From Chiloscyllium plagiosum (taxonomy: Eukaryota): a stretch of DNA of 27,432 nt. A program made the position numbers and the translations under genes. The notes beneath the pieces are model-generated. The model saw nothing but the letters and a program-made list of their open reading frames with translations. It was not told the origin of the DNA and searched no databases. Positions 2,607 through 27,432 of this stretch are shown piece after piece; within the stretch, counting starts at the first letter, position 1, and each line of letters opens with the position of its first letter. The DNA lies in the NCBI RefSeq assembly GCF_004010195.1, contig NC_057718.1, positions 47,429,535-47,456,966 on the forward strand, written 5' to 3'.

Positions 2607-3640
2607 CATAGAATAATAGAATCATAGAATTTTACAGAAGAGGCTATTCAATCTGTTGAGTCTGTATCGACTCCCAAAAGAGCTACCCAGCTAGTCCCAT
2701 TCTTACTCCTATCTCCATAGCCCTCACCTTTCAGATATATATCTACTTCTCTTTGAAACCTCTTGTGGAATCCACCCCCACCACTCTCCCAGGCAACGCA
2801 TTCCAAATCCTAACAACTGTGAGTAAGTTTCTCCTCATCTCACACCTAGCTTTCTTGTTGACAACCTTGAAATTGTGACCCCTCGTTACTAACACATCAA
2901 CTACTGAAAACAGAATATCCTTCTTTACCTTGTCAGAATTGTTCATAATTTTGAACACCTCCTCTTATCCAAGGAGAATATGTCCAATATCTCTAATCTC
3001 TCCATATATCTAAAATTCATTATTCCATGTATCATTCTAGCAAATCTCATTTGCTTTCTCTCCAGGGCTTCACCATTCTTTCTTAAATAAGTTGTGCCCA
3101 GAACTCTTGCAATACTCCAAGTGTGGTCTGACCAACAATTTGTAGAAGTGTAGCATCATTTCCTCGCTTCAATACTCTATGCCTCCAATTAAAAACCCAA
3201 GGATTCTACAAGCCTTCTTAACTGTTTCAACATATCTGGCCACCTTCAGAGAATCATGCAAATGAACCCCACTCCCAAAGTTATACCAGGAGAAAGTGAG
3301 GACTGCAGTGCTCGAGATCAGAATTGAGAGTGTGGCTGGAAAAGCACAGCCAGTTAGGCAGCACCCAAGGAGCAGGAGAATCGACGCCTTGAGCATAAGC
3401 CCTTCATCAGGAATGAGGGCCTGACCGGCTGTGCTTTTCCAGCACCATGCTCTCAATTCAAAGTTATGTTATGTATTTTCTTTCTATGTTTCTTCTACCG
3501 AAACGTATTAGTGGGCATTTCCCCGTATTGAAATTCATGTGCCAGGTGTCAGCCCATTTGGTCAACTTGTCAATGTCACTCTGAAGTCACTCGTCATTGT
3601 CACAATTCTCCCTAGTTTAGTATTATCTGCAAATTTAATG
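2607..3640 (-). mobile_element. 5'-truncated CR1 LINE (RT C-terminus, 3' UTR, tail), interrupted by an insertion at 3285-3458
   Basis: Minus-strand translation gives KFADNTKLG (~3635-3610, the CR1 FADDTKL motif), VKKACRILGFL and TRGHNFK...VVRIWNALP. Tail catagaataatagaatcatagaat (2607-2630) = rc of (ATTCTATG)-like repeats. Frameshifts and stops are present. Confidence 0.92.
3285..3458 (-). mobile_element. Short fold-back Penelope-like (pLTR-derived) insertion, family A, with a decayed hammerhead core
   Basis: Flanked by exact caaagttat at 3276-3284 and 3459-3467. Partial inverted arms (gctggaaaagcacagcc / ggctgtgcttttccagc). Minus strand reads CTGATGA-A-GGGC-ttat-GCTC-aagg-CGTC (GAAA mutated). 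Homologous to 13870-14087 and 27329-27432. Confidence 0.8.
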
Positions 3641-3679
3641 ATAATCCTAGGAGAACACCACTTTCAACTTGTCTCCAAT

Positions 3680-4005
3680 TACTTGGACTAACAATCTGTA
3701 AATGCAAGTTCAATTCCTACAATGGTAGCTACGGAATTAAAATTAAGTTAATTAAATAAATCTGGAATCTTAAAAAAAAACTACATTTGTAACAGTGACC
3801 ATGCAGCTACCAGATTGCTGTAAAAGCCAATATTTACTAAAGTCCTTTAGAAAGGAAATCTACTGTCCTTAGCTTCTTTGCTATATGTGACTCCAGACTC
3901 CACGTCAAAGTGGTTGATTCTTAATCTAATTCGTGAGCCAGTCATGTTCAAAAAAGCAGCTCACCATCATTCCAAAACACAAGGGCAATTACTGATCAAA
4001 CATTA
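3680..4005 (+). mobile_element. tRNA-derived SINE relic with LINE-derived 3' tail
   Basis: B-box-like gttcaattcc at 3708-3717. The body is similar to the 5267-5475 and 725-1075 copies. Tail cagctcacca (3957-3966)...gggcaatta matches the LINE end at 4907-4916. Confidence 0.7.
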
Positions 4006-4489
4006 AGGTGAATTTTTAAAATCCTGGAATTTGAGTATATTTTGGAAAAAAAAATACAGATCTGCACAATGTGGCAACTGTCTATGTATTTTATTTCCAA
4101 CTCAAACAGCTCATTGCTTAGCATGGTTTTTAATTGAATAATCACATATAGCTTCTAATCCATTACTTGCCAACCTCTTTGTCTGAAACTGCTATAAATT
4201 GTTATTTCATCCAAATGGAAAAGACTGATTGGCAATATCTGATTCACCCTTGAGATTTGCAACAGTGTTCATTTCTGCATCAAAGTTCATACAATTACAA
4301 ATTTGTATTTCTTTTGATGTACTACAAGATAGGGTAGTCTTTGTTATTTGTATAATTCTGTGTTTCTAATCAATATCTCAGGCAAATCACACATCCCGGA
4401 TAAGCTTTACCCAACATGTGATTATGTTTACCAAATAAATGTGTGTATTTTTAACACGTTCCTTAACCCAATGCCTTAAAGTCCTCAGC

Positions 4490-4990
4490 TCCTTCCACAA
4501 GCTAGGCTTACGTATGGCAATTTTGTCCACCACAGTGACTCAAAAAATTATACCATCTAAAGCAAAGCAGCTCATTTGTATGGCACCTGATCCACCACCT
4601 TCATCTTTATTTCCCCCCACTGCCACATTGGCAGTAGTGTGTAAGATCGACAAGATGCACTATAGCAACTCACTTGGCTCTTTGAAAGCACCTTGCAAAT
4701 CTATGATCTGTAATACAGAGAACGGGCAAGAGCAGATGATTCATGACAATATTACTACCTTTTAACTTCACTGTAAGCCATACACCATCCTGATTTAAAA
4801 CTATGTTGCCATTCCTTCACTATCATTTGGTCAAAATCCTGGAATTCTCTTCCTAACAACATTGTGGGTTTACCTACACCCAAAAGACTACAGCAGCTCA
4901 GGAAGACAGCTCACCACCACCTTCTCTCGGGCACAGGGTGGACAATAAATGCTGGGTCAGCCAATGAGACTCGTGATGCATGAATAAATG
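4490..4990 (+). mobile_element. 3' end of a CR1-group (L2/Crack-like) LINE, degenerate
   Basis: Encodes KSWNSLP (WNSLP at 4840-4854) and RKTAHHHLL, typical of CR1-group ORF2 C-termini, followed by caataaatgctgg and a tgaataaa tail. Confidence 0.8.
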
Positions 4991-5033
4991 ATTTTAAAAA
5001 TTGCAAGCAGATCTTGTGTTGTAAACATGTTTA

Positions 5034-5034
<1 letters not shown>

Positions 5035-5088
<54 letters not shown>
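5035..5088. repeat. Perfect (TA)27 microsatellite
   Basis: Direct reading, 54 bp uninterrupted. Confidence 0.98.
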
Positions 5089-5092
<4 letters not shown>

Positions 5093-5266
5093 TTATCTGG
5101 ATGCATCAGTCGCATTTAACTGGCCAAATGATTAAATATTTATTTCTAGTCCTGAATAAAATCTATGTTTTTCCTCCGAGTTATTTAAATGGAAAAAAAT
5201 ATTTAAACTGTTAATTCTGGAGTCAGTAAATAAATAAAAGGTACTTTGACTAAAGATTTACACTCA

Positions 5267-5475
5267 GGATTGTTATAACAATCCAACTAGCCATAAAGGT
5301 TCTTTAGGGAAGGAGGTTTTCCCAAGTTACCTATATGATTCTAACCTCACATCAATGCAGTTGAACATTTCTGTCTCTGAAGTGGCTTAGTGAACCATTT
5401 AGTTGTGTCAAATGACTCATCCAATAAGAGATGGAGAATAAATGCCATCCTTGCAAGCACAGCTCACAGCCAAAT
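5267..5475 (+). mobile_element. 3' half of the same SINE family as 3680-4005
   Basis: ggattgttataac...ctttagggaagga...ctatatgattcta parallels 3812-3900 and ends in aataaatgcc...gctcaca, as does the LINE tail at 4944-4975. Confidence 0.6.
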
Positions 5476-5627
5476 TTGTTTTTTTAAGTCCTAATATCAA
5501 TTTTTCCAAACCCAGGAAAATTCTCAACAACTGTGTTGTTCAATTTCAGCATTATTGGTTGCCCTGTACTGTTATCAGACGAAGCAATGTAGTTAAACTC
5601 CACTCCAAGTATGGCTTAAATACCAGG

Positions 5628-6430
5628 TGTTATGACCAGTGGAAGGGTTCCCCTCTTTTTAACCCCTCTCCGTGGGTTGCAACAAATATTTGTATTTCTT
5701 TTTAACATGCAGTTGCCACACCTCACTTAATATTTAGCTAAATAGAAAATGAAGGAGAAATTATTCGGGTTTCCTTGAGTGAAAGGAAAGACTTTTATTA
5801 CCTGACAACCCTGAGAAAAATTAACAAATGTCTGATATCAAGGACACACACAAACATGCATAATAAGTTTAAAGGGTTGGTGTCTGGTATAGACAGAGAG
5901 AAATACAATTACACTACTCAAACCTTATTAGAGTATTTCAAGTGTTAAATTTTAAACCTCTGACTACAGTTTAATTCATATCCACAGCAGCAGCAGAATC
6001 TGTAGATCTTTGATTTCTCCATGAATGGCTGTTTCCTCAAGATGTTTTTTCATTGGTGTTGTTTCCAAGATGATAAGAGAAACAGCAGGGAGAGTTCCAG
6101 CGCTTGGTGTCACAGTTCACTTTTCCTTCGTTCCTTCTGCTACTCAAAAGCAACTGTGGAAATAAAGAACAGTGTATATTCTAGAGTCTAACTCCATTGT
6201 CTTTCCAAGAATGTTAACCACAACGTAAACCTTTCATCTACCAATACATGAAATTATTATACATGTGTGAATTAAATAAGAGGTATGGATCCCGTGATGC
6301 TGGCTTAGTTGCCTGGTTTCAATGTCTTGAGACAAAACTGTTAATTTCAAAGTGGGCAGCTTAGTTTGTTCCACACTGGTCTCCCAAAGCTTGCCTTAGT
6401 CTGTGGCCAGGTGACCACTGCAGTCATTTT
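5628..6430. mobile_element. Possible LTR-like relic (probably reverse orientation)
   Basis: Starts TGTTA (rc ...TAACA) and has tttatt (rc AATAAA) ~165 bp inside, as expected for the U5/R end of an inverted LTR. The other end and a TSD were not found. Confidence 0.25.
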
Positions 6431-6440
6431 CGTTTGGGAA

Positions 6441-6505
6441 CATGATCGGCATAGACTCATTGGACCAAAGGGTCTGCTTTCATACTGTATGACTTTATGA
6501 CTCTA
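6441..6505 (+). mobile_element. CR1 3' terminal fragment
   Basis: ggaccaaagggtctgctttcatactgtatgactttatgactcta matches the CR1 end at 24478-24527. Confidence 0.8.
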
Positions 6506-8414
6506 AAACTAACAGAAATATCATAATCCAAACTAAATCAACATTTTGTTGTATGTACAGACCTTTAAAACTGATGGGGAATACATTAAATATATTGGTA
6601 AAGATATTTAATAAAATAAAAGCCAATCATTAAAAGATTTCACACAACAATGGATGAAGTAATTGAATTTGATCCCCAAAGCATTAATGAGAATTACAGA
6701 ATACCTATTTAATAAGAATGTAATTTGACTTACTTAGTTACTATAAATTAGTTATGACATTATTCTCTCCATGGCAGAAACTCCTATTATTATAAAATAG
6801 TATAAGCTCAGACTCACAGTGAGCAATCTCTGGGGGGATATTACTGTCGTACTCACATTAGAAGTGTTGGAATATTTTTTATTGTTCCTGAGTTTAAAAA
6901 AAGCACAGCAATCAGGGACATCTTCACAATGCTATTACTAAAAGTGAAGTTCTGTCTAAACCAGTTGAATTGCATTTTGTTTATTTTTGTTACTATAATT
7001 AGTGGCCACACAAATATGTACATACACTATTTTTGTAATATGGGTAACTGAATACAGTACCGAGGTCCATACATGGCATTCTTAGTGTGTACCATCAGTG
7101 TGTTTTCTGATTGGTTAGTGGTGATATTAATAGGGACAAGTAGCAAGAAACTGTATCTAGGTAACCACAATACACAAATACATACAAATGTGAGCTGGCA
7201 CATGTGTGCTTAGATACACATGTTTAAATGAGCAGTCCAAGTTCGAAACAATGTACAATTAATAAACAGAATATTGTTTAAATTTCCACTGCACCAAAGA
7301 ACAAGTTTTGAAATTAACATTTTTCAGTAGAGTCATACCTAACTGGTAACTTCTAATTATCAAATGATAACATCAGAAACTTACTTATAATTGTCATTTG
7401 GTAATACAGAATTGAGTATTACTTTATTTTGATATTTGTTATGGATTAGCCTGATTAGACCAAAATGAAAAGATTCGACAAAATGTGTATGATTTTCCGC
7501 AATATTCAAAACCTGCTTCTAATAACCTATGAGACAATTATGGTTGATTCTATAATAGAAAATAACAAATGCTGGAGATCACAGTGGGTCAGATAATGGC
7601 TGAATATTACAGCACTAATATTAACAGGATGTTCTCAATAACTACTTTTCATAATCAGCATTAAGTGCATATCTTAGATATGTAGTGTTTGGGCATCTTG
7701 ATAATAGGACAGAGGAATATCAGAGATGCAGAAAAGGATGTCTGGCATGAATTAGGAAAGCTTCCAATAGGGACAGATCACATCAGAAAGTCTTCATTGC
7801 AAATAATAATAGTTGAAATATGTTTTAGTAAAATTCAAAGTTAAATCTTGTCTATACTGCTCTTTTTTTATTTGCTAGTAACATAGAGCAAGCCAAATAC
7901 CAATATCTATATCAGATATAAGGCTGAGGCTTCTGGTGTAATACTCTGGATACTTAGTAAGATGCCTTTGAACCTCTTTTGAGACCAATGTTCTTTATAT
8001 GCTCCAAAGTCTGATTATATGCTGCAATTACATGTTGAGGATGTTTTTAATCTTTTTATCTGAAGAAAGGAGCAGGATCGATCACAATTAGTTCTGAGAT
8101 CATTTCTGATTAGCCACTGTTTGGAGGAAGATTTGCTCCTTCAGGTTGTACAATTATGTCCTTTATAATTAAACCTTAAGTATATTTTAGTTTCTCCATA
8201 CATTATGCCATCAATCTTTGAGAGTGAGGGAGACCAATAAAAAGCTTCAGGCTTTAGATTTGAGAGAAGATGTGATAAGTTGGTCAAGTCCAGAATGGCG
8301 TATTCTTGCTGATGGGGCAAAATTAACATCGCTTGGAAAAATCTGAATTAATTAAATAAAACAGCAGGGGCAAATTTTGTGTTTAGCTAATTTTATTTGA
8401 GATTTTCAATTAAA

Positions 8415-9560
8415 ATCAGAGAGAGTTGCGCAGCTGTTGTGATATACATGGACTTCCAAAAGACTTGCGTTAAAATGTCAAGCAACAGGTTTGACAGAAA
8501 TGTTGAAGCTCATGGAATATAAAGAGCAGAAGGAGCTTTTGTAGTGGTAATGCCCCTACTTCTGGTTCGGGTTCCACCTGCTCCAGTGATGTGTAATAAC
8601 ATCTCTGAACAAGTTGATTAGAAAATATACAAAGGGCAGAGGCATCATGAATATAAAATTAGCCCTGGGAAATAACACAGAGTGGCGGTGAAAAACTGTT
8701 TTCCATGCTCAAGGTGTGGTTCCTCAGGGGTCTGCTTTTTCAATCAATTTAAGTGACTTAGACAAGGGGTGGGCAGTTAACAATGAAATGGGTTGACACA
8801 TGGCAGATTAAATTTAACACAGAAATGTGAAGTGATGGATTTCAGTAGGAAGAAGGGGGAGCAGCAACATAAAATAAAGGATTTAATTCTTAAGATATTG
8901 CAGGAACATAAGAACCTGGGGTTTTATGTACACAAGTTTGTAAGGTGATGGGGCCAATTATGTAAGCAAATAAAACATATGGAATTATGGGGTTTATATA
9001 TAGCACAAAATACAAAAGTGAAACAATGATGGTGGTCCTGTATAAAACATTAATTCAACCTCAATAGGAGCGTTGAATCCAGTTGTTTGTATTACACATT
9101 GACAAGCATGTAAAGGCTTTGGAGAGGGTGAAGGAAATTTATGAAAATGGCCTCAGGATGAGAAACTTCAGTTAAAAAGTTAGTTTAGTGAGGCTGGGGC
9201 GGGTAGCTTTAGGAAAGAGAAATTTGAGATGAGATTTATTGAGGTTTTCAAAATTGTGAGGAGTCCAGGCACCGTAGAAACTGTCCTTACTGGTGTAAGG
9301 GTGAAGAACCAGAGGACACCAATTTAAAATGAATGGCAAGAGAACCAGAGGCAGCATGTGGGACGCTTTTTACACAGTGTGAAATGTACTGCCTGAGCGT
9401 GTGGTAGGATCAAATTCTACTGTGGGCTTTGTAAGGGAACTGGATATTTATCTAAAGATGGAGGAAAAACAACGGTATGGAACTAGTTGAGTAACTCTTA
9501 GAGATCCATCACAGACAGGTTGGACTGAATGGTCTTTCTCTGTGATGTTACTATTCCATA
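8415..9560 (+). mobile_element. Old 5'-truncated CR1 LINE relic interrupted by a short SINE
   Basis: Decayed YMDFQK (~8446-8462), GVVPQGS-like (~8714), WQIKFNTEK (~8801), RTRGHQFK (~9305) and a CR1 3' UTR ggactgaatggtctttctctgtg. Many indels. Confidence 0.85.
8531..8626 (+). mobile_element. ~96-bp tRNA-derived mini-SINE with TSD
   Basis: Flanked by atataaagagcaga (8517-8530) and atacaaagggcaga (8627-8640), 12/14 identical. A-box-like tgtagtggta and B-box-like ggttcgggttcc. Removing it rejoins the host CR1. Confidence 0.7.
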
Positions 9561-10228
9561 CAGCAGTTGCATTCTGTGGAGACTCCATATTCATAGCCCA
9601 GTGTGGCAATAGTGTGATACTTGTAAGCCACAGATAACTCAGGAGTTGATGTAAATAAAAATGTACTGTTTATTAATCACACAGTAAAGTTCAGCTGAAA
9701 AACAATGGATTTGATGCACACACTTGATAGTAATGCTAGACAGCATTACTCCATTGTACAGTACATCAGCATGAATGCTGCCATACAGACAGTTTGAGTA
9801 TCTGTTCCCATGTGGGTTTGACAAGTTTCTGTATCATGTTGATGCTACATTTTAGTTTCTTTCCAAGATTCTGGAAGTTCTGTCGCTAAAATAGGATATC
9901 ATTGCAAGTCACTCCCAATTAGGAGAAATCATGCATCACAAAAGGAGACTTTTGGGACTTTGTTTGCTTGAAGCTTCCATACATTCCTATATACCTTCAA
10001 CATCACAAGCTGCACGTTTTTTAATTGGTCCGGAAGCCTGTGTTTAAGACACTACCTGTACCTGTTATGTCAAGATTTTTTATTTCTATGTTATCCTACA
10101 TAATGAATCATTAAAGCCAGGATAGTCTTTATGAAATTTGCATAAGTTTAAACCGCTTGGATGACAACTAAAATATTTTTTTTTAATTTGGAAATGCCAT
10201 ACACTTTAATGTATTGTGAAGTTACTTG

Positions 10229-10258
10229 TAACACATATTACAATAACACATGTTACAA
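10229..10258. repeat. 15-bp tandem duplication
   Basis: taacacatattacaa / taacacatgttacaa (1 mismatch). Confidence 0.85.
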
Positions 10259-10334
10259 TTCATTACTTTTGTGTCATTGGAATGACTTTGCAGTTATAGT
10301 GGGGAGTTACAGACTGAAAGGTGAAGCATCTTAC

Positions 10335-10362
10335 CTGTTTCCTTTCTCAGTTCTTCAGTTAA
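10335..10362 (-). other. Candidate 28-nt micro-exon (LTEELRKET + G), host gene unknown
   Basis: Minus strand: ttgctttcctcatgtttccAG | TTAACTGAAGAACTGAGAAAGGAAACAG | GTaaga. Both splice sites are near consensus, only phase 0 is open, and the exon is purine-rich (GAAGAA, ESE-like). Lies in repeat-free DNA. Confidence 0.45.
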
Positions 10363-11975: not shown

Positions 11976-11991
11976 TATATATATATATATA
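11976..11991. repeat. (TA)8 microsatellite
   Basis: Direct reading. Confidence 0.9.
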
Positions 11992-12285: not shown

Positions 12286-12900
12286 AAATTAAAAACTCAT
12301 TTGGCACCAAAGTACATTTCATGGTTTGAATACCAGGTCTACACTGGCAGTTCCTAACCATGAGAGAAATGTGTTGCAGCAAGTGGACGAAATGCTTCTG
12401 AGTGGAAAAATATTGGTCAAAGTTTCCACTCCTGATTACAATTCAGTTACATGTTGGATCAAGCTCAGCAAATTATCCACTAAAACTCACTTTATACTCT
12501 TACAAATACTTGTATGAAATACCAACTGATTGCTGTTCCCAAAGCAATTATATCCCAGCATAATTGAGTGACTCATTGGTGGTTATCCTTCGGGGAGCCA
12601 GCTGGATCTCTTTGATGTCAATGTTGCTCCAACTTAAAACTGATATTTGCTCAGATCCATAATACTCTAGAGTACTATTGTAGAACTGAAAGAATAGACT
12701 TGTCACTAGAGATTGGTTTTTACCCATCCTCTTCCAGTTAAGCCCAAAACTCTATGTCCAATAGGCTGGTAAAACCATTAAACCTATCAATGCACTGTGT
12801 TGACAGTCTATGTGGATTTTGCTGGTTTGATTCCTGCAGTAGCCATATCCAAACTTCAAGTTTTTACATTTTATGAAATCCACAAGATCAGGAAATGTGG

Positions 12901-13136
12901 TGCATAAACAGAAATTGCTGGAAAAGCTCAGCAGGTCTGGCAGCATCTGTGAAGAAAGATCAGAGTTAACATTTCGAGCCCAGTAACCCTTTTTCAGACC
13001 CTTCTGAGGAAGGTCACCGGACCTGAAAAGTTAACTCTGATCTCTCTTTACAGATGCTGCCAGACCTGCTGAGATTTTCAAACAACTTTTGCTTTAGTTG
13101 CTGATTTACAGCAGCTGCAGTTCTTTCGGTTTTTAT
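12901..13136 (+). mobile_element. Fold-back Penelope-like insertion, family B, with two opposed hammerhead cores
   Basis: Imperfect ~90-bp inverted arms (~12906-12997 / 13004-13095) and a ~40-bp extension on the right. TSD tcaggaaatgtgg (12888-12900) / tcaggaactgtgg (13137-13149). Plus strand: CTGAGGA-AGGTC-accg-GACCT-GAAA (13004-13028). Confidence 0.85.
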
Positions 13137-13379
13137 TCAGGAACTGTGGCGATCAGGTTGACTTAATTAGGCAGAATTTCAGATTCTCAAGGATGGATTG
13201 TGATGCAGAGATAAGCTCAGCAGCATGCTTGCAGCATGTTAAACATGATACCAGTCTGTGGAGGCTTGGTGCTTGAAGTACATTTGTTTGCTATGAATAC
13301 TCATTAACAAAAACCTTTGTCTAATTTCATCTCACATTCAAGATAATATCAGCGGTGTGTGAGAGTCCTGTGTTAACCA

Positions 13380-13720: not shown

Positions 13721-13961
13721 GAGAGCTAACTAAACATAGAAGTTCAGCTATGTCCCGCAAAATGGTAGATAGAACCCAAACATTAACATGAACATTCAAT
13801 ATACAGCGAATAAGAAAGATGTCATATTGTTTCTTCCATAATAGACGAAATATGCTAAACTCCCTTATAGGAGAAAGTGAGGTCTGCAGATGCTGGAGAT
13901 CAAAATTGAAACTTTATTGCTGGAACAGCACAGCAGGTCAGGCAGCATCCAGGGAACAGGA

Positions 13962-13999
13962 GATTCGATGTTTCGGGCACAGGCCCTTCTTCAGGAACC
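13962..13999 (-). ncRNA. Minimal hammerhead ribozyme motif (opposite arm)
   Basis: Minus: GGTTC-CTGAAGA-A-GGGC-ctgt-GCCC-GAAA-C-ATC-GAATC. A 5-bp stem I (GGUUC/GAAUC, one GU) is possible. The ACGT palindrome has changed to ACAT (CpG-type transition). Confidence 0.7.
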
Positions 14000-14030
14000 T
14001 GAAGAAGGGCCTGTGCCCGAAACGTCGAAT
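13998..14030 (+). ncRNA. Minimal hammerhead ribozyme motif (type I-like, Penelope-type)
   Basis: CTGAAGA (13999-14005), A, stem II GGGC-ctgt-GCCC, GAAA (14019-14022), palindrome ACGT, triplet GTC (14024-14026). Stem I is mostly lost at the inversion junction. Confidence 0.75.
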
Positions 14031-14624
14031 CTCCTGTTCCCTGGATGCTGCCTGACCTGCTGTGCTGTTCCAGCAATAAAGTTTCAACTAAACTCCCTTA
14101 TAACCAATATGTGCCAACCAAGAGACATGCCAGAGCATATAACTCTTTGATTCAGCCAGTCTTAGTAAATAACAATGATGAAATATTTGTTAATCATTAC
14201 ACATCAATAAAGTGAAACCAGTATAATGTTTACGAATATATTTACAAATGAAACTTAATTTTGAAAAACACCCATACCACCTTTGAACTGCTAAGTCTTA
14301 TGATAATGACAATATAGTTGGGTGTGGCTGTGATGCAGAATCTTCTTGTTTGCACACAGTCTCTTTTTTTAACTACAACTATTTGGCCTTATTGCATTGT
14401 CAGTTGGCATTAGGTTTCACCACTGAAATTTCCACCAGTGATGAATTGCATGTGTTTTGAATTCATGCCTCTGGCACCTAGAATTTTAATTCCAAACACA
14501 AGAATGTAACTGGTCACTGTTCCAGTTGAGAATAGCAAGTTATTTTCAAAATTCTAATCTACAAGTGCGGAAACAAACTTGACTTGTGTGAATTTCTCAG
14601 CAGATTGGTTTAGAGAAGATGCTG

Positions 14625-16340: not shown

Positions 16341-17851
16341 CACAGCTGAACTACCTTAAATAAAAAGAAAGCCAGCTATTCTTCTGACTTTGACCATCTC
16401 CCCACCCACTTACCCCAAAAAATGAGGCTGGTGAGTTAAGCAGTATTCTCAGCAACAACAATTAGTATCAAAGTGACCTCATATGTGCCAATTTAAACAA
16501 CCTCTCACAAAAGCAACTCAGAAATGACTTTGAGCAGACAGCTAGGTTAAACACAGTTCCACCTTAGCAGCTAAACATCAAAGGCACACACTTCACCGTA
16601 CTTGAGCACGTAATCCAGATTATCTCTTCAATTTAGTAAGAGTTTCGTGCAGAGGAATTGGAGGTGCAATGAGATGACTGTTGGTTGGCTTTCCATGATC
16701 CAGATTCTTAAAGTGAAATTTAATATACATTCAAGTTATTTGGATTTTCCTTTAAAAGAGCACAGAAAGTTTCTCAGAAAATTGAAATTAAAGTTAATAT
16801 GAAAGCCCCAAATGCAGGAACAGAGATATTAATTATCTTTAAGATTGCTATGAAACTTCCAGTTTTCATATGAGTACATTAAATTGTGCAGGAAAGATAT
16901 TGCTGTCTGATAGGCAATCATGTTACTAATTCTAGCCTCAACCCTCTCCCTCCATCACAATTTGGCCTTTATCAACAAACATCGTACTCTCCTATTGTAC
17001 AATATGTTGTTCTTTTCCCTCCTCCCCTGTCTGTTCATTTTTACTAACAACACTTTTCCCAAGATTTCAAAACTGGATTCTGTACTAGCTTTTGCTACTT
17101 GCTAGAATTGTCATGTTCTTAAAATCCATATTATTCAATGTTTAATCATTATATTGTGAATCACCTTGACTTCTCTTCCAGCCTTTTCTGTGTTTGTTGT
17201 ATTGTGCATTATAGGCATTGATGTTTCATGTTGATATATTTTACAAAATAGGGTTTTTAAAATCTAAATATAATTCTTGTGCTCAAATTCATTGATAATC
17301 TTGCTAATCGGAAATAAGGTGTTATTTTCAATGTGACCTGCTCTCCTGTGCGAATGCACAGTGAAGCCTAGTGTGCGCCTTTGATGTTGAGTTGCTAAGG
17401 TGGAACTGTGTTGAACCTAGCTGTCTGCTTAAAGTCATTTCTGAATTGCCTTTGTGAAAAGTTGTCCAAATTGACACATACTGAGGTCACTGAGATAGTA
17501 ATTGTTGTTGTTGAGAATACCGCTGGTTTAGCAGCTAACTGTAACTCACTAGCCTCATCTTTGGGGTGATGGGGTCTGGAGGATGGTCAAAGTCAGAAAA
17601 ATAGCTGGCTTTTTTAAGGTAATTCAGCTATAACTGATTAGAGCCAATGAGGTGCTAAAGGAATTCGTATTTATTTGAACGACAAAGCATGACAAATACA
17701 AATGCATGCAAGACCTTTACATTTGCAGAATGATTCTTTGCAAATAATTAGTATAAACAAAATGATTGCACACCATTTATAAACAAACAAAACTGCAATG
17801 ATTTTCTCTATCAAAAGTAATGGCCTTTTCTTACACCCTGCTATTTTTCAG

Positions 17852-18459: not shown

Positions 18460-18715
18460 GACCTGAACGGTTGCATCTTAGGATATTAAAATAATTAGCT
18501 GCAGAGATAGTGAATGCACTGGTAATAATCCTCCAAGGATCCTTAGGTTCTGGGAAGTCCAAAAGGATTGGAAAATGGTCATTGTAATACTTTTATTTCC
18601 AAAAAGAAAGGAGACCAAAAACAGGTTGCCAACAGCAGGAAGACAGTTAGTATAACTTCCTGTTGTTGGAAAAAATGTTCATAGAGGATGTAATAGCAGA
18701 GTATTTAGAAATACT
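18460..18715 (+). mobile_element. CR1 'host' element, piece 1 (pre-RT region)
   Basis: Decayed GPDGLHPRILK.LAAEIV...DWK...LF...VSITS.VGK...DVIAEYLE. It stops immediately before the QHGF motif, which resumes at ~20392. Confidence 0.85.
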
Positions 18716-19421
18716 GTTTGAGTGTTGTCACATGTACCAATATACAATGAAAAGTGTTGGTTTGTATGCTATACAGGCAGATCATACCATACAAAGTGCA
18801 TTAGGGTAGCAGAACAGAGTGCAGAATATAGTGTTGAGGATGCAGAAAGAGAGATCAGTTTGAGAGGTCCATTCAAAAGTCTGATAACAGGGGGGAAGAA
18901 GCTGTTGTTGAATCTTTTCGTCTGCGTATTCAAATTTTCATATCTGCTGCCTGATGGAAGAGGGTGGAAGAGAGTATAACCGAGGTGGGACAGGTCTTTG
19001 ATTATGTTAGTTGCTTTAGCAAGGCAGCGGGAAGTATCAGCGGAGTCAATGGATGGAAGGCTGGTTTGCGTGATGGACTGGGCTATGTTCATGATTCTCT
19101 GTAGACTTTTGGAAGTGCAGTTACCATATCATGCTGTGATGCACCAAGATACGATTCTTTCTGTGGTACATCTATAAAAATTGGTAAGGGTCTTAGTGGA
19201 CATCCTGAATTTCCTTAGCCTCCTGAGGATGTACAGGCATTGTTGTGCTTTCTTGACTGTTGCATTGACATGGGTGGACAAGGACAGATTGTTAGTGATT
19301 ATCACTCCCAGGAACTTAACACTCTTGATCATCTCCACCTCAGCACCATTGATGCAGATGGGGCATGCCCTCCTCTCTGCTTCCTGAAGTCAATGACCAG
19401 CTCCTTCATTTTGCTGATATT
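18716..19421 (-). mobile_element. Rex1/Babar LINE, 5'-truncated (RT C-terminus and 3' UTR)
   Basis: Minus translation: NISKMKELVIDFRK, KFLGVIITNNLS...VKKAQQCLYILRRLRKF...LTNFYRCT, IIKDLSHLGYTLFHPLPSGSRY...RFNNSFFPPVIRLLN. These are characteristic Rex1/Babar C-terminal motifs. Confidence 0.92.
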
Positions 19422-19575: not shown

Positions 19576-19584
19576 CTTCTTTAG

Positions 19585-19617
19585 GTTAAATCCAATCAAG
19601 CTAATTACAAAATTCAG
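19585..19617 (+). other. Candidate 33-nt (cryptic) exon
   Basis: ctctcactcttcttctttAG | GTTAAATCCAATCAAGCTAATTACAAAATTCAG | GTAAGT. Perfect donor and frame-preserving length, but embedded among repeats. Confidence 0.25.
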
Positions 19618-19634
19618 GTAAGTGATAGAAGGTG

Positions 19635-19970
19635 CCATTGACAATGCAACAAAGAGGCACTTGCTCAGGAATAATTTGCCCAGTTTGGGATCTGCCAGGG
19701 CCACTCAGCTCTAGATTGCATCATCATGTTGGTTCAAATATGGACAAAATAACTGAATTCCACAGGTGAAGCGAGAGGCAACATTTGACCAAGTGTGGCT
19801 CTAAAAAGCCATAGCAAAACTGAAGTTAGGAATGAAGGCAAATTCTGACCAGATAGTCATGCCTAGCAAAAGATGGCTGTGGGTGCCAAACATCTCAACC
19901 TAAAAACATCACCACAGGAATCTAAGGCGAAGCATCTTCAAATGCTTCAATTACCTTTTGTGATTCCATC
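19635..19970 (+). mobile_element. Decayed RT fragment of a CR1-group (L2/Crack-like) LINE
   Basis: cagtttgggatctgccagggccactcagct (QFG..QGHSA), acatttgaccaagtgtgg (TFDQVW, cf. AFDRVW), atcttcaaatgcttc (IF.CF). Internal deletions. Confidence 0.7.
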
Positions 19971-20391
19971 ACTTCACAATTTCATCTTGTAATTAGTCAG
20001 AAAGTTTAAAACTTGACTGTTTACAACCTAATATTCACAACACGTTTTGGGGGCTTAGAGATTGTCAGTCTGTACATCACAGCTATTTTCATCATTACTT
20101 TACTGTGTGAATAACTTGCACCTCTCAATAAAGCCTTCCTTTAGTCATTAACAGCTCAATATTAGACATATTGTCTATCAGATTTCAGAGGTCACATGAC
20201 TCCCTTCATTTTACCCTAAATTTAAAACTGCCCCAAAGCATAGCAACCGTTGATATGCATTCCATTCAGATAGCCACTATTAGACTATTTTCTCTTACCA
20301 CCAGACTATTGATATTGGCAACTCCAACGTTGGTGAGAGATTATTGTGTTTACACCATGCTGCCAAGCATTCAATTTCTTTCTTGTACTTA

Positions 20392-20924
20392 ATATGAACA
20401 AGCAGAGTCCACATGGCTTCATGAAAGGTAAATCATGCCTGCCAAATTCATTAAAAGTTTTGAGGAAGTAACAAGTAAGATTGATGAAGGGGAAGCACTG
20501 GATGCAATATATTTGAATTTCCAGAAGGCATTGGGTAAGATATCACATGTTAGTCTGGTTAACAAGATAAAAGCCCATGGTGTTGCAGGTGGTGTATTAG
20601 CACAATAGATGATTGGCTAACTAATAGACCGAGTTTTGGATTGAGGGCATTTTCAGGATGGCAACCTGTGACACATCATTTGTTACAGGGATCAGAGCAC
20701 AATTATTTGCAATACATGTTAATGACTTGGATGAGAAATGTGAATGCACTATAGCCAATGTTGCAAATAAAACAAAAATAGGTAGGAAGGCAAGTGCTAA
20801 GGATGGCAAAAAAAGTGTACAGAGAGATATAGACCGGTTAAGTGAGTGAGCAAAAACTTGGCAGATGGAATATGATGTGGAGAAATGTGAGATTTTTGGC
20901 AGGAAAAATAAAAGAGCTGAATTT
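20392..20924 (+). mobile_element. CR1 'host' element, piece 2 (RT core)
   Basis: QSPHGFMKGKSCL, IYLNFQKA, LFAIHVNDLD...VANKTKIG...QRDIDRLSE, WQMEYDVEKCE, ending at KNKRAE. Confidence 0.92.
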
Positions 20925-23900
20925 TCAAGGCAAATTCTCAAAGGGGAACATGAATAGCCAGAGGTCATTGCACACATTAAAACCAACGAGTGGGGAGAGA
21001 AAAAGGTTTGAGGTTTTGCAAAGTTATTATATGGAGTTAGGTAGGAGGTTAAAAAGTATAACCTCGAGATTAGTAATCTCTGGATTTCTCCTAGTGCCAG
21101 TGATAGTAGGAATAGGAGAATGGGGCAGATGAATGCGTGGCTGAGAAGCTGGTGCAAGGGGCAGGGATGCAGATTTTTAAAAGTGATCGGTATAAGAGGG
21201 ACTGGTTGCTGCTGAGCTGGTGGGGGACCAATATCCTGGTGGGCAGATTTCTGAGTGCTATTCGGTAGGGTATAGACTAGTCTAGCAGGGCGGCCTAAAT
21301 GATAGTGAGACAAAAGAAAAGATCAAGGCTAGTACAGAAGTTAAAGAGAGCAAGTTAAATAGACAAGTCAGGCAAGACCAATCAGGGAATGAAGGATGAA
21401 TTAAACTATGTTTATTTCCATGTAAGAGGCCTGACAGGTAAAGCAGATAAACCCAGGGCATGGAGGGGTCGTGGGACTGGGATATCACAGCTATTACAGA
21501 AACATGGCTGATGGAGGGACAGGATTGGCAGTTTAATGTTCCAGAGTATAGAAAAGATAGAAGAGGAGGCAAGAAAGGAGGGGAGTGGTGTTTTCGATTA
21601 GGGAAATCATCACTGCAGTATTTAGAAATGATATTCCTGGAGGTTATATGGGTAGAACTGAGAAATGTGAAATGGATGATCACGTTGATGGGATCATACT
21701 ATAGGCTACCCAATAGTCAGTGGGAACTTGAGCAAAGATGTAGGGAGATCGCAGGTAGCTGTAAGAATAATTGGGTTGTAATAGGGGAATTTAACTTTCC
21801 AAACAATGACTGGGACTGCCACAGTGTTTGGGCTTGGACGGGAGGAATTTATTAATTGTGCTCAGTAAAGATTTCTCAATCAATATGTAGGTGGCCCTTC
21901 TTGAGAAAGAGCAAAACCTAAGCCCTTGGGAAATAAGGCAGAGCAAGTGAGTGAGGTGTGTGGAGGAGCATTTTGGGACTAGTGACCATAATTCTATTGG
22001 TTTTAAAATAGTTACAGAAAGGTTTAGGCCTGGTTCAAAAGTTAAAGTTCTAAATTAGGGCAAGGTCAATTTTGATGGTATTAGGCAGGAACTTTCAAAA
22101 GTTGATTGGTGGAGGCAGTTCACAGGTAAAAGGACATCTGGCAAGTGGGAGACTTTCAAAGGCAAGATAATGAGAATTCATGGCCTGCATGTTTCTATTT
22201 GTGTGAAGGGCGAGGCTGGCAGGTGGAGGGAAGACTGGATAACTAGAGATATTGAGGCTCTGGTTAAGAAAAGGAAGGAGGCATATATCAGGTATAGGCA
22301 GTTGGGCTCAAATGAATCCCCTGAGATGTACCGGGATGGAGGAGTACACTTACTTGGGAAATCAAGAGGACAGATAGGGGACATGAGATAGCTTTGGCAT
22401 ATAGGGTAAAGAAGGTTCCAAAGAGATTCTACAAGTATATTAATGGCAAAAGAGTAGCTAGAGAAAGAATAAAGCCCTGTAAAGATCAGTGAAGCCATCT
22501 ATGTATCGAACCATAGAAAATGAGTGAGATCCTAAATGAATATTTCTCGTCAGTATTTACCGTGGAGAAAGATATGGATGCTAGGGAAATCAGGGAAGTA
22601 AATAGTGATATCTTGAACAGAGTGCACATTAGGGAAGAGAAGGTGCTAGAAGTCTTAAAATAACTAGAGGTAGGTAAACCCCTGAGACTTGATCAAGTGT
22701 ATCCTAGAATATTGTGGGAAGCTAGGCAAGAAATTGTGGGGCCTCCAGCTGAGATATTTGTATTATCATAAACCGTGGGTGAGATGCCGGAAGACTGGCG
22801 GGTGGCTGATGATGTACCATTATTTAAGAAAGAATGCAAGGAAAAGCCAGGGGACTACAGACTGGTAAACCTAATGTCAGCAGTGGGTAAATTGCTGGAG
22901 GGGATTCTGAGACACAGGATCTACATGTATTTGGAGAGGCATGGACAAGTTAGGGGTAGTCAGCATGGCTTTATGTTTGGGAAATTGTATCTCACAAACT
23001 TGATTGAGTTTTTTGAAGAGGTGACCAAGAAGATAGATGATGGCAGAAAGGTAGATGTTGTCTATATGAAGTTTAGCAAGGCTTTCAACAAGGTTCTACA
23101 TGGTAGATTGGTTTGCAAGATTAGATCACATGGGATCTGGAGCAGCTAGCTGATTGGATACAAAATTGGCTTAATGATAGGAGACAAGGTGGTGGTTGGG
23201 AATGTTATTCGAACTTGACAAGTGGTGCACTGCAAGGATCTGTGCTAGGTCCACTGTTGTTCATCATTTATAAAAATGATTTGGTTGAGAATATAGGTTA
23301 GTGAGTTTGTAAATGACACCAAAATTACTGGTATTGTGGAGAATGAAAAAGGTTATCTAAGAGTACAATGGGATCTTGATCAGCTGGGCCAGTGGGCTGA
23401 GGAATGGCAGATGGAGTTTAATTCAGATAAATGCAAGGCATTGCATTTTAATAAGAGAAACTGGGCAGGATTTATAGTTAACGGTAGGATCTTGGGGAGC
23501 GTTGTCGAACAGAGAGACCGAGGGGTGCAGTGTGAAAGTGGCATGACAGGTAGATAGAGTGGTGAAGAAGGCATTTGGCATACTGCCTTCGTCAGTCAGG
23601 GCATTGAGTACAGGGGTTGGAACATCATATTACATTTGCTCAAGGCATTGATAAGGCCACATTTAAGTACTATCCGCAATTCTGGTCACCCAACTGTAGG
23701 AAGAATGTTGTTGAACCAAAAAGGGTGCAAAAAAGACTAGCAAGGATGTTACTGAGTATAAGGAAAGACTGGATAGGTTGGGACTTTCTTCCCTGGATCA
23801 TCAGAGGCTAAGGGATGTCCTTAGAGAAGTTTATAAAATCATGAGGGGCATGGATAGGGTGAATAGCCAAGATCATTTCCCACGGGTAGGGGAGTCCACA

Positions 23901-24170
23901 ACTGGAGAGCATATGTTGAAGATGAGAGGGGAAAGATTTAAAAGGGACCTGAGGGGTAGCATTTTGTTTGGAATGAGCTGCCAGAGAAAGCAGTAGGGGT
24001 ACGTACAATTGCAACATTTAAAAGACATTTGGATTGGTACATGGATTGGAAAGGTTTAGAAGGTTATGGACCAAATGCAGGCAAATGGGACTCGTACAGT
24101 TTAGGAAACCTGTTGGCATGGACGAGTTGGGCTGAAGGGCTTGTTTCCATGCTGTGTGAGTCTGACGAAA
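20925..24170 (+). mobile_element. Near-full-length degenerate CR1 LINE: ORF1 esterase remnant, ORF2 (APE + RT) and 3' UTR
   Basis: ORF1-like ELGRRLKSITSRLVISGFLLVP (SGNH/esterase region, ~21030-21100). APE: DITAITETWL, IGEFNFP, SDH (21981). RT: PEDWR...YRLVNLMSAVGKLLE, QHGF, DVVYMKFSKAFNKV, QGSVLGPLLF (~23233), FVNDTK (~23306), WQMEFNSDKC. CR1 3' UTR to ~24165. Many stops and frameshifts. Confidence 0.96.
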
Positions 24171-24527
24171 GCATGAGGGGTGTAGATAAAGTGAATAGTA
24201 GGTGTCTTTTCACTAGGGTGGGGGGTTTCAAGACTAGAGGCATATTTTTTCAGTGAGAGGAGAAAAATTTAAGAGGGACATAAGGGGCAACCTTTGTACA
24301 CAGAGGGTGGTTTGTGTGTGGAATGAACCTCCAGAGGATGTGGTGGATGCAGGTACTGTTACAATGTTTAAAAGATTATTAGGTAAGTATGTGAATAAGA
24401 AATGTTTGGAGGGATATGGGCCAAGTATAGGCAAGTGGGACCAGTTTAGTTTGGGATTATGGTCGGCCTGGACTGGTTGGACCGAATGGTCTGTTTTCAT
24501 GCTGTATGACTCTATGACTATGACTCT
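24171..24527 (+). mobile_element. Separate CR1 3' fragment in tandem with the previous element
   Basis: Restarts at MRGVDKVNS (repeating the region at ~23841), has TQRVVCVWNEPP...FKRLL, and has its own tail gactctatgactatgactcta. Confidence 0.92.
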
Positions 24528-25296
24528 AATATTAAATGGAGCAAGACTGCAGAAAGCTGCAGCAAAGAGGGATTTGGGAGTCTTCATACTAAAGCTAACG
24601 TACAAGTTATGGAGATAGTAAATAAGGCAAATGAAATGTTGGCCTTTATTCCAAATGAAATGAAGTGTGAAAGAGAGATGTCTTACTAAAACTTATACAA
24701 TTAACTCGTTAGACTATACCTAGAATACTGTAAACAGTTTTGGTCTCCTTATCTCAGGAAAAATACATTAGCTTCGGAAGCAGTCCAGAAAAGGTTTATC
24801 AGGTTGATTTCAACTATGAAAATCAATTTCATGATTGATTCCAGTTTATGAAAGGACTGTCTTATTAGGAGTGGTTGAGTAGGTTGACCCTATGCTCATT
24901 AAAGTTCAGAAAATGAGAGGCAAGTATTTTGAAACTTACAAATTTCTGACGGGACTTGACTGGGCAGATGTGGAAAGGTTGTTTCCCTTTGGGGAAAAGT
25001 CTCAGACCTAAGGGCATCATTTCAGAGAAAGGAGTCTAAAATTTAAGATGAGGATTTTTTTCTCAGACACTAGTGAATTTGTGGAATTCTTTACCACAGA
25101 GTGCTATCGAGAATGACTCATTAAACATATTCAGAGCTTAGACAGACACACTTTTAATTAGTAAGGGAATCAAGGATTAATGGGAAAAGGCAGGAAAGTG
25201 GATCAAGGATTAGCAGATCAGGCATAAACTCATTGAGTGGTAGAACAGATTCAATGGGCTGAATGGCCTACTTCTGCATCTATGTCTTAAGATCTT
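24528..25296 (+). mobile_element. CR1 'host' element, piece 3 (RT C-terminus, 3' UTR)
   Basis: Resumes with LNGARLQKAAAKRDLGV (the natural continuation of KNKRAE), then LEYCKQFWSPYL, VNLWNSLPQ and 3' UTR gggctgaatggcctacttctg...tatgtcttaagatctt. Confidence 0.92.
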
Positions 25297-25534
25297 GTGT
25301 GGTAATTTGCAGTCCAATGAGATTCTCACCAAATCAGTTGGTAACTTTGAATTCCTGCAAATCAAGATCCGCAACAAAGATGTCTCCAATCTCCTTGGAG
25401 ATGCAAGAAGCCCCATATGTTGGCCATCTCACTTGGGTCCTTTTCCTGCTTGCTTGGAAATGAAGGACTGGATCTTCTGTTGCCAGAAGCCACTCTTTCC
25501 ATCCATTCTTAACTGGAAGTAAACAAAGCATAAA

Positions 25535-25729
25535 AATGATGTGGAGGTGCCGTGTTGGACTGGGGTGGACAAAGTTAAAAAATCACACAACTCCAGGTTA
25601 TAGGCCAACAGGTCAATTTGGAAGTACAAGCTTTCGGAGTATTGCTCCTTCATCAGGTAGCTGATGAAGGAGCAGTGCTCTGAAAGCTGTATGTCCAAAT
25701 AAACCTGTTGGACTATAACCTGGTGCTGT
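25535..25729. mobile_element. Fold-back Penelope-like insertion, family C, with two opposed hammerhead cores
   Basis: Inverted arms ~25585-25656 / 25661-25729, spacer gtag, and a ~50-bp left extension. Candidate TSD aaagcataaa (25525-25534) / aaagtataaa (25730-25739). CTGATGA at 25661-25667 (+) and 25656-25650 (-). Confidence 0.85.
25624..25659 (-). ncRNA. Minimal hammerhead ribozyme motif
   Basis: Minus: TAC-CTGATGA-A-GGAG-caata-CTCC-GAAA-GCT-T-GTA. Intact core, 4-bp stem II, palindrome AGCT, NUH triplet CUU, 3-bp stem I (UAC/GUA). Confidence 0.7.
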
Positions 25730-26704
25730 AAAGTATAAAGAGGCAGCTAAAAGCTCTGAGGGGATGTGCTGTTTCCAGTGGGCAGAGAATGAACTGCATC
25801 CCACCTGAATTCTGCCCTCTGTAAAAGCCCATTCCTTTCTTTTAAAACAGCAGAATAATAACTAAAATAAGCACCAGCTTTTGATGGGTTAAGCGTGAAG
25901 GAAGAATCTTTGTGTTAGCTATCGTGCAACCCCATTGAACCTTACTCCAAATATGTTGTATGTATGCCCTTTCTTCCTTCATGTCATGTGATTTCTGTCT
26001 GGTTTAATCTCAAGACAACAAACATGAAGAAACCTTTCACCTTCTTTTGAAAAAAAAAAGAGTCTTTGCATCTGTTTTCCAGACTGTTCCTGGGTGTGGG
26101 CACTCTGCCTAAAAGTAGTGGTTGTTTGGTGGCAGTCTGACTCTGTAGAGTGCAGCTGCTTTCGACTCGATCGCCCTAACTCTGTCTCTCTGTCTGACAC
26201 AGCAGTACAAGTTTGGTCCAATACTCCAAGCCAAAAACACCAAATCGTGATGCTCTGAGCAGACAAAATAACTAGAAGAAGATGGCAATGTGTGATTATT
26301 GCCCTGAGCACACTCAAAGTTGGCAGCTGGGGATTTCCCAGCTTTACCAAAGCTGATCAGTAACACAACAGTCCACAGAGTTAACTTGTTAGTCATGTGA
26401 TGGTAATTGCAGCTTTCTTGCACAAACATGACTCATATTCTCTCACTGTAAGAAAGAAATAAGACACAAACATATCAAAACACAATGTTTTCTAGAGTAA
26501 TCTTAAATCAGCTTAACATGACATTCCCAATCCTATGGGTATTTTGGTACAAGTACTAATCTGAATATTTAGTTAAACTAAATAAAACTGTCTGAATGTT
26601 GGTATAGATATGAATGATAACAAAACACAGACATGTATTTTAAAGAAAGTGCAAACAGGGATGGTCGAGTTTAGGTTTCTTCTTGCTTCATTTGACAATA
26701 TTAC

Positions 26705-26879
26705 TTTTTCCATTTGTTTCTGCCATTCCCTTCCTGTGGAGCCCATATGGGAATCAATGGTGGTAAATTCCCATAGCCCCTTTGGAGAATGACTCAGCCT
26801 CTGCCTGAAACCAAGGCCTGTATGGGACCGTATCCAACCATCTTTCAATTCAAACTCCTCAATTTCTGAAGTGTCTTTT
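26705..26879 (-). other. Weak candidate exon (minus strand)
   Basis: Acceptor ctttacAG (26881-26880). One open frame, KDTSEIEEFELKDGWIRSHTG...QKQMEK. Only a weak donor (AAA|GTaata). Peptide not recognised. Confidence 0.2.
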
Positions 26880-27166
26880 CTGTAAAGTAACTTTAAAGCA
26901 TTTTTCTGTTACCTTAGTAACATACTGCTTGATATCCCCTGGCTGGCACTGATTACTGCCTGCATAAGACAATCTCAAACAATCAGTCAAGTGCCTCTAT
27001 TCGATTAGAAGATGAGTATGATATAATAAACCCTTCTTAAGGAAACTATTTTCTTCTACAGTCACCATAAATACTCATTGAGAAGAATATTTATTTCATG
27101 CATCCAACTGTCAACCTGACCCAGTTAGATGATCTTTCAACTCTCATTCTTAATACTATGGGCTCA

Positions 27167-27260
27167 GGAGGTCCAAGATGGCGGCAACCCAGCAAGTCTG
27201 AGTCTGTAGTGCTCTGCCCAAGACTCAGGCAAAGTGGGCTGCCCGCCTCCCCCATATCTG
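27167..27260 (+). promoter_or_regulatory. YY1-motif GC-rich segment, possibly a LINE 5'-UTR start
   Basis: Perfect YY1 consensus CAAGATGGCGGC (27174-27185), hairpin ctgagtct/agactcag (27198-27205/27221-27228) and GC-box-like cccgcctccccc. GC-rich island in AT-rich DNA. Confidence 0.4.
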
Positions 27261-27328
27261 CCAAACCATTTAAAATAACTTTTATTCAACATAGTTAGTC
27301 ATTTTGTACCAAACTTCAGTAGTTTGAT

Positions 27329-27432
27329 GAGAAAGTGAGGACTGCAGATGCTGGAGATCAGAGCTGAAAATGTGTTGCTGGAAAAGCGCAGCAGGTCAGG
27401 CAGCATCCAAGGAACAGGAGAATCGACGTTTC
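27329..27432 (-). mobile_element. Family A Penelope-like terminus, cut by the window edge
   Basis: gagaaagtgaggactgcagatgctggagatca...gcaggtcaggcagcatcc...aatcgacgtttc, homologous to 13871-13974. The last 12 nt read GAAACGTCGATT on minus (3' half of the hammerhead). Confidence 0.88.

Follow-up and report, generated by a model that had tools for sequence, protein, structure and literature searches.

The shark Chiloscyllium plagiosum carries, within a 27,432-nt stretch of contig NC_057718.1 (positions 47,429,535 to 47,456,966, assembly GCF_004010195.1; hereafter the window), five short insertions at 3285-3458, 12901-13136, 13870-14087, 25535-25729 and 27329 to the window end, and these raise the question of what they are and how they were made. 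The original prediction held that three unrelated-looking fold-back families share one covarying minimal hammerhead ribozyme of the kind found in Penelope-like elements (PLEs), and that they belong to a very high-copy ribozyme-bearing retroelement system. We are highly confident that the repeats are truncated ends of endonuclease-bearing PLEs with the known minimal type I hammerhead. The fuller explanation, in which such ends were copied from a capped sense template by priming on both target strands, has in our estimate roughly two chances in three of being correct.

Positions in the motif are counted from C3 of CUGANGA (C3 = 0) on the ribozyme strand, and the predicted cut in family A falls between +27 and +28. 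The predicted CTGANGA core, extra A, stem II and GAAA are present at 13999 and 13004 on the plus strand, 25656 on the minus strand and 25661 on the plus strand, with stems GGGC/GCCC, GGTC/GACC, GGAG/CTCC and GGAGC/GCTCT, respectively. Likewise, ACGT is found at 14022-14025 and 27426-27429, AGCT in both family C arms, and the proposed cut site after 14026 is where it was placed. That description omitted helix I, and its extension to every element was correct for the four quoted cores but not for the 3285 element, whose right arm starts about 47 nt past the core, or for the 27329 element, whose core lies beyond the window. CTGANGA alone was not enriched in the window (20 matches against 16.95 expected). 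The full motif gave 60 matches in a genome sample of 582,090 non-N bases, made up of 60 pieces of 10 kb placed at round coordinates, compared to 2, 6 and 6 in three Markov controls, and 31 of the sampled matches had a palindromic helix III compared to none in the controls. A pattern for families A to C gave 167,470 exact matches in the 3.56-Gb genome and 18 when reversed, and ACGT or AGCT was present in 97 of the first 100; both the loopless palindromic helix III and the very high copy number were therefore as predicted. Rfam returned no hammerhead among 11 matches at E up to 10.

The covariation claimed between families was also confirmed. In 14 core-anchored representatives 126 of 140 pair cells were paired (shuffle mean 83.8, maximum 99), and with one sequence for each of seven lineages 63 of 70 cells were paired, a value reached by 0 of 5000 shuffles. 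Helices I, II and III all covary between lineages. Because stem II had served as a filter in choosing the representatives, the helix II counts lean upward and are not independent; helix I was unfiltered. As a MAFFT alignment placed family C one column out of register, pairs were counted on the anchored sequences. All 14 representatives, which were selected for an intact core, had the core and GAAA with an extra base before stem II (A in families A, B and C, U in family D). The first helix I pair was formed in all 14 and was of three types (C-G in 8, U-A in 3 and A-U in 3), and three A subfamilies had a U-U mismatch within this helix. The helix III palindrome was ACGT in families A, B and D and AGCT in family C. 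We conclude that the motif is real and is the known minimal hammerhead of PLEs.

Only one of the seven core-bearing arms in the window, 25656 on the minus strand, kept all features (core, stem II, palindrome, a cleavable H17 and three contiguous helix I pairs). Among the other six, 13999+ has lost helix I, 25661+ has G17, 13004+ reads AAGT, 13994- reads ACAT, 12997- reads CTGAAAA and 3410- is without GAAA. Because a single arm is intact and the paired cores face opposite ways within each hairpin, the window copies are fossils. Selection on the copies was rejected as an explanation of core conservation in family A, since identity over 184 arms was 0.96 in the core compared to a flank median of 0.94 (mean 0.89). 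In the same arms the helix III CpG had identities of 0.74 and 0.69 compared to 0.78-0.84 for other CpG bases. These profiles indicate that the genomic copies drift neutrally and that selection acted on master elements rather than on copies.

The assignment to PLEs was made directly for family A, by homology for family B and by architecture only for family C. Long family A copies extend upstream into a GIY-YIG endonuclease with CxxC between its motifs and a CX4CxxC linker (P0001). In the portions of Craig et al. 2021 (PMC8557442) available to us, a CX2-5CxxC linker before GIY-YIG and CxxC between the motifs are features of Neptune and Nematis PLEs; by its linker, family A would be of this type. 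The Pfam GIY-YIG model matched the family A protein weakly (E 0.0096, below the cut-off) and a shark homologue, P0003, over the cut-off; a search of the genome with this profile gave one uninformative match. The closest named proteins to the family A endonuclease were from carpet sharks (82% Chiloscyllium, 62% Rhincodon). A 469-residue homologue containing reverse transcriptase (RT) and endonuclease (EN) had 92 genome matches, several of them stop-free, and at one locus a stop-free match over all 469 query residues was followed by the A2 arm sequence of the window and a target-site duplication (TSD). This RT-EN element, at G000:C8:30.85 Mb, thus ends in the sequence of the 13870-14087 insertion. 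In two rearranged copies the tail continues into an ATG and a short peptide resembling the N-terminus of P0018, which appears to place a hammerhead copy before the family A open reading frame (ORF). In one locus, L188, a hammerhead, tail and ORF start are joined to a second hammerhead. At L188:164-334 and at L035 near 7422, which belong to different subfamilies, the ORF start abuts position -7/-12 before a hammerhead, almost the same place in both, perhaps by a recurrent microhomology deletion or a template jump producing mini-elements.

The prediction of three unrelated families held for family C, which outside the motif is unrelated to A and B, but homology between A and B extends past the core (68% over 82 nt, E 1e-7), and the two form a single cluster. 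A fourth family, D, was found outside the window (L059:2800-3511, L085:2478-3368 and L051:6333-6924); it has a longer stem II, a 3-bp helix I and the ORF stop within loop II, and it terminates a Penelope/Poseidon-like ORF at the endonuclease end without a CX4CxxC-type linker. The sample contained 177 PLE-end fragments, which scales to about 1.1 million genome-wide (bootstrap 0.89-1.30 million). Fragment and pair counts exclude window copies and search-target copies; the duplicates L001, L092, L122 and L152 were left out of clustering, and L112 and L121 out of the partner-arm comparison described below. Two more hammerhead variants, E and F, each with its own helices I and II, were seen once (L040:4344 and L040:1542, respectively). 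Runs of N lie directly 5' of many arms (L037:8067, L057:3149 and 6665, L069:5139, L083:6977, L086:3996), and gaps in the assembly at inverted repeats may conceal long fold-backs and shift the counts toward short ones.

The young fold-back of subfamily A2 at 13870-14087 illustrates the architecture. Its tailed arm occupies 13870-13997 on the minus strand and its tail-less arm 13998-14087 on the plus strand, with 99% arm complementarity over 90 nt. The one-sided tail (13870-13905, minus) extends about 36-38 nt beyond the inverted repeat, and the insertion is flanked by an exact 15-nt TSD (13855-13869 on the left and 14088-14102 on the right, plus strand). The minimal hammerhead of the tail-less arm (13999-14030, plus) has the core, extra A, stem II, GAAA and ACGT, with the predicted cut after C14026, and has lost the 5' strand of helix I at the junction; that of the tailed arm (13963-13997, minus) has a helix III decayed to ACAT. 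In 30 aligned A2 hairpin copies the arms were fixed and the central junction was variable. A TSD of 12-18 nt, a length that may take in 1-2 element bases, flanked every one of the 29 young A pairs that had been selected and 23 of the 38 A pairs that were untargeted (0 and 1 in the controls). Neighbouring arms were head to head in 66 cases, tandem in 5 and tail to tail in 2. Arm 3' ends were bimodal, at about +85-90 and +120-125, and exactly one arm was tailed in 53 of 62 untargeted head-to-head pairs (50% expected, p 5e-9), 61 of the 62 being formed by arms of the same family.

Arm 5' ends clustered at the first base of helix I. In 53 of 164 family A arms the end fell between -8 and 0, a 16-fold excess (p 2e-36), and among young A arms chosen only by their tail end 9 of 20 stopped there (the 20 were drawn from the top 23 rows). 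The 5'-end hazard in this interval was 9.1 per 100 nt in family A, 5.8 in family C (11 of 32) and 0.54 in family D (1 of 24). Reads of run X19 had loose ends at -4, +84 and +123-125, and contig depth in run X15 rose about fourfold across the -4 boundary. An additional G often preceded this boundary. Genome-wide, among family A matches without the templated C at -5, the base before -4 was G in 10,206 and A in 4,524, a count that leaves out G at -6; in family B it was G in 73 and A in 27 of the first 100 of 1,577 matches. With an expected G share of 0.41, the excess over base composition was 3.2-fold in A and 3.8-fold in B, and mutation of C to G was rarer than C to A (31 compared to 55). By eye, TG was found in 54 of the first 100 G rows and TA in 37 of the first 100 A rows, about 3.3-fold when scaled, and this TG excess is not explained by overlap with the partner arm. 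The base at -4 is the A of TCATTC (family A) or TCAGTT (family B), which we take to resemble the initiator consensus, and TATAAA lies at -38/-40 in all four long C copies examined. An intron ending at helix I was rejected as the origin of the boundary, as family A has no AG at -6/-5 and no common upstream exon, and an apparent family D peak at -52 was dropped as partly a probe artefact.

An extra G marks copying of the cap in full-length L1 insertions, according to the accessible part of one report (PMC11702581), and an untemplated G at the sense 5' end therefore favours a capped sense template. We consider it probable that uncleaved capped sense RNA served as template for two cDNAs, one primed on each target strand. 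The master element would be transcribed as a capped sense RNA beginning at the first base of helix I (-4), an mRNA that opens with a hammerhead and has the ORF downstream of it. The RT-endonuclease would nick both target strands about 12-16 bp apart, and each nick would prime cDNA internally on uncleaved RNA, at the inner (+85-90) or the outer (+120-125) tail boundary. A cDNA primed on the 5' copy would reach the end of its RNA template after about 90 or 130 nt, often copying the cap as an extra G, whereas one primed on the 3' copy would enter the end of the ORF and stop at scattered points. The two cDNAs would be joined head to head, often via 1-4 nt of microhomology, giving a TSD-flanked fold-back with one tail that is formed anew at each insertion. 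The ribozyme, if active, would act in the master RNA, with its 5' and 3' copies paired via the palindrome, and not in the fragments.

The inverted arrangement could instead arise by snap-back, in which a single cDNA folds back or, as Arkhipova et al. (2013) have it, an antisense RNA serves as its own primer, and one end loses its tail to endonuclease trimming. Many junctions are indeed short hairpins or perfect palindromes, and the available text of PMC3846280 proposes self-priming from junction palindromes. Partner arms were also more alike than random copies in 34 A pairs (median identity 0.90 compared to 0.82; 0.44 compared to 0.06 shared rare variants per pair). However, within-pair identity exceeded that of the best outside copy in just 1 of the 34, which is what a single master locus would lead one to expect. 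Among the 53 one-tail pairs, the arm extending more than 10 nt further 5' was the tail-less one in 23 and the tailed one in 10, and the ends were equal in 20; the extreme difference between partners was -452 compared to +77. In those 23 pairs the tail-less arm has 5' sequence and the tailed arm has a tail, each absent from its partner. As neither arm can be derived from the other, we argue for two RNA-templated cDNAs, which fits the accessible account of an anole PLE protein that nicks both strands and extends them, with two internal priming sites and no need for ribozyme cleavage (PMC11167929). Together with the G at the sense 5' end, which indicates a capped sense template, these pairs make snap-back unlikely as the general route.

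A second alternative accepts the boundary but not its meaning as an RNA start: RT would stall or be released as helix I closes in the nascent cDNA, or microhomology would fix the end, and the G would be a terminal-transferase preference. In its favour, boundary and helix I edge coincide exactly, microhomology shapes junctions, with a 3-nt overlap at +14-16 in about 23 of the first 100 of 3,273 matches (by eye), and in long A1 copies G stood before 6 of the 14 ends located elsewhere. On the other side, family D lacks the pile-up in spite of a 3-bp helix I in its hammerhead, TSD-bearing solo arms also end at -4, -3 and -1, the same boundary is present in subfamilies with the helix I U-U mismatch, and in an untargeted set G preceded only 7 of 45 other ends. 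We therefore regard this explanation as doubtful.

A more speculative proposal keeps the hammerhead at a capped 5' end and has the palindromic helix III serve mainly as an RNA dimerisation signal, which would load two uncleaved RNAs on one RT-endonuclease dimer and prime both strands at once. Although we consider it rather improbable, it would explain the inverted pseudo-long terminal repeats (pLTRs), the one-sided tail and a ribozyme that barely cleaves, and it would make the approximately one million shark fragments a fossil record of strong-stop-like cDNAs.

We consider it very unlikely that the hairpins are self-standing non-autonomous elements, resembling miniature inverted-repeat transposable elements (MITEs) or short interspersed nuclear elements, that are copied whole. 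The best 40 genome matches to the 13870-14087 insertion do cover the entire hairpin of about 220 nt at 97-100% identity, and one 4-nt junction (window 25657-25660) recurs among the best matches of family C (L096-L121), a set selected by likeness to the query. This recurrence may reflect either a preferred microhomology or the copying of one sub-lineage as whole units. However, junctions differ among copies with identical arms, within a subfamily lengths grade without a break from short arms to copies that bear the ORF, and only 68 of the 177 sampled fragments were paired. Membership among MITEs was rejected in view of the variable centre, the one-sided tail and TSDs of 11-19 nt.

Nearly all integrated arms cross the predicted cleavage site, and as far as sequence can tell there is no clear trace of cleavage. 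A candidate cleavage fossil at +28 (the start of 4 of 164 arms, p 0.003) was not supported, as 0 of 20 young arms began there; the first 100 of 3,273 genome matches, inspected by eye, had much microhomology and no peak at the cut site. A fold-back transcript is predicted to form a hairpin of about 90 bp (-197.5 kcal/mol; z -13.5 for family C) in which the paired cores are on opposite strands. With these hairpins, the decay of the helix III CpG and arms that cross the cut site, a working ribozyme system at the window loci, as originally proposed, is not upheld. It is scarcely credible that the dispersed copies are active, with transcripts of different loci pairing via helix III and cleaving: in spite of the abundant motif and its conserved palindrome, and of copies in poly(A) RNA (2,007 reads placed of 12,955,460 read), the helix III duplex is predicted at only -1.7 (ACGU) or -2.5 (AGCU) kcal/mol, its CpG decays like neighbouring CpGs, 92% of placed reads continue into unlike sequence from both strands, as host read-through would, the paired arms are sequestered in hairpins, and published dimers cleave weakly in the available account (PMC4209133). 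That work (Cervera and de la Pena 2014) already contains the minimal hammerhead and the dimer proposal. Dimer cleavage is plausible only where the 5' copy of a master transcript meets its 3' copy, as published in the accessible parts of PMC4209133 and PMC6765202. In the 5' copy, such a cut would take off a capped leader of 32 nt, a role that we infer.

Several observations weigh against two-strand priming from capped sense RNA. No full-length element was found, the best RT-EN locus being 5'-truncated; the ORF start after the tail is known from the two rearranged copies only; and no ORF was tied to family C. The 20 one-tail pairs with equal 5' ends are explained as well by snap-back of one cDNA. 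AG was present in 38 of the first 100 G rows, and partner-arm sequence can supply part of the G count. In the local sample the excess of G was small: G preceded 5 of 12 arms at -4 compared to the 7 of 45 elsewhere and the 6 of 14 in long A1 copies, so that a general preference of RT for adding G may be at work. The TATA-like motif of family A is weak. No long B copy was found; the templated upstream base of B consequently rests on few arms, and the hazard beyond -8 is not computable for this family. Finally, in about 2% of the run of a fragmented poly(A) single-cell library there was no site where many RNA molecules begin.

The motif agrees with the published PLE minimal hammerhead, as far as the accessible text describes it, in its core, the extra base between 9 and 10.1, G10.1-C11.1, the short helix I and the palindromic 15.2-16.2, in its many covarying families of mostly single truncated copies, and in some pairs on opposite strands 100-700 bp apart. 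Sharks are not among the hosts named in that text, and the counts given there, about 4,000 in coelacanth and 9,000 in X. tropicalis, came from a descriptor requiring helix I, so that they are not directly comparable with our 167,470, for which helix I was not required. Canonical EN-bearing PLE insertions (PMC8557442 and PMC3846280, in part) share the head-to-head inversion, a 30-40 nt tail on one arm, a TSD, junction palindromes, TATA/Inr-like (initiator-like) pLTR motifs and, in Neptune and Nematis, the CX2-5CxxC linker. They differ in that the dominant product here is an arm of 90-130 nt that stops at the edge of helix I and bears an extra G, and in that the 2013 work (PMC3846280), in its available text, hypothesised antisense self-priming and left it undecided. 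Poseidon PAc of Anolis (Frangieh et al. 2024, PMC11167929) likewise has a tail bounded by two internal RT starts and a hammerhead near the ORF start; in the accessible text, inverted pairs were not derived from two-strand priming and no cap mark was reported, and family A differs further in its Neptune/Nematis-type linker and in an ORF whose start seems to lie behind the tail. Non-LTR retrozymes (Cervera and de la Pena 2020, PMC7229834) are PLE-related and have type I hammerheads at very high copy, with 126,247 in axolotl (PMC7229834; Li et al. bioRxiv 10.64898/2026.07.22.740005; both seen in excerpt). As described there, they form head-to-tail arrays of canonical ribozymes, in contrast to our 66 head-to-head and 5 tandem neighbours, and membership in this group was rejected on that ground.

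The ribozyme and its link to PLEs were thus known already, and they largely explain the original observation. New here are a further host lineage, in which the motif reaches very high copy, and three observations on the arms: the one-tail statistics, the boundary at helix I and the extra G. These three speak for a capped sense template rather than for the antisense self-priming of 2013, as the accessible part of PMC3846280 presents it. The literature that we searched contained no report on shark PLE hammerheads, PLE twin priming or a PLE cap mark, although subscription works (Arkhipova 2006; Evgen'ev and Arkhipova 2005), Repbase/Dfam and supplements may hold some. The value of the locus lies in the data set of about 1.1 million PLE ends to which it leads, as their junctions bear on sense versus antisense templates and on the origin of inverted pLTRs, and the one-tail rule and the extra G yield sharp, testable predictions.

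The remaining insertions in the window follow the same plan. The family A head-to-head insertion at 3285-3458 has a tailed arm (about 3289-3418, minus) with a decayed core (C3 at 3410, GAAA lost) and a short tail-less arm (3419-3458, plus) without a core; its TSD is 9 nt and exact (3276-3284 and 3459-3467). The family B fold-back at 12901-13136 (B gave 6180 candidates at first look) has a tail-less minus arm with a decayed core at 12997 and a tailed plus arm with its core at 13004, flanked by a 13-nt TSD with one mismatch (12888-12900 and 13137-13149). The hammerhead of the latter arm (13004-13036, plus) has a helix III decayed to AAGT and retains two helix I pairs. In the family C fold-back at 25535-25729, the tailed minus arm has its core at 25656 and the tail-less plus arm at 25661, both with an AGCT helix III; its TSD is weak (10 nt with one mismatch, 25525-25534 and 25730-25739), and the minus-strand hammerhead (25625-25659) has a 3-bp helix I, stem II, AGCT and U17. 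The family A tailed arm at 27329-27432 (minus) covers sense positions +20 to +123 and is cut by the window end.

Other repeats are also present. An inverted repeat at 16346-16620 and 17350-17640, with arms of about 280 bp that are 81-89% complementary and about 750 bp apart, has no hammerhead and is possibly a non-autonomous DNA transposon or a local inversion. Decayed fragments of long interspersed nuclear elements, which we take to be of CR1/L2 type, encode endonuclease- and RT-like peptides at about 20400-25300, 18700-19400 and 8400-9550, and a (TA)n microsatellite of about 54 bp lies at 5035-5088.

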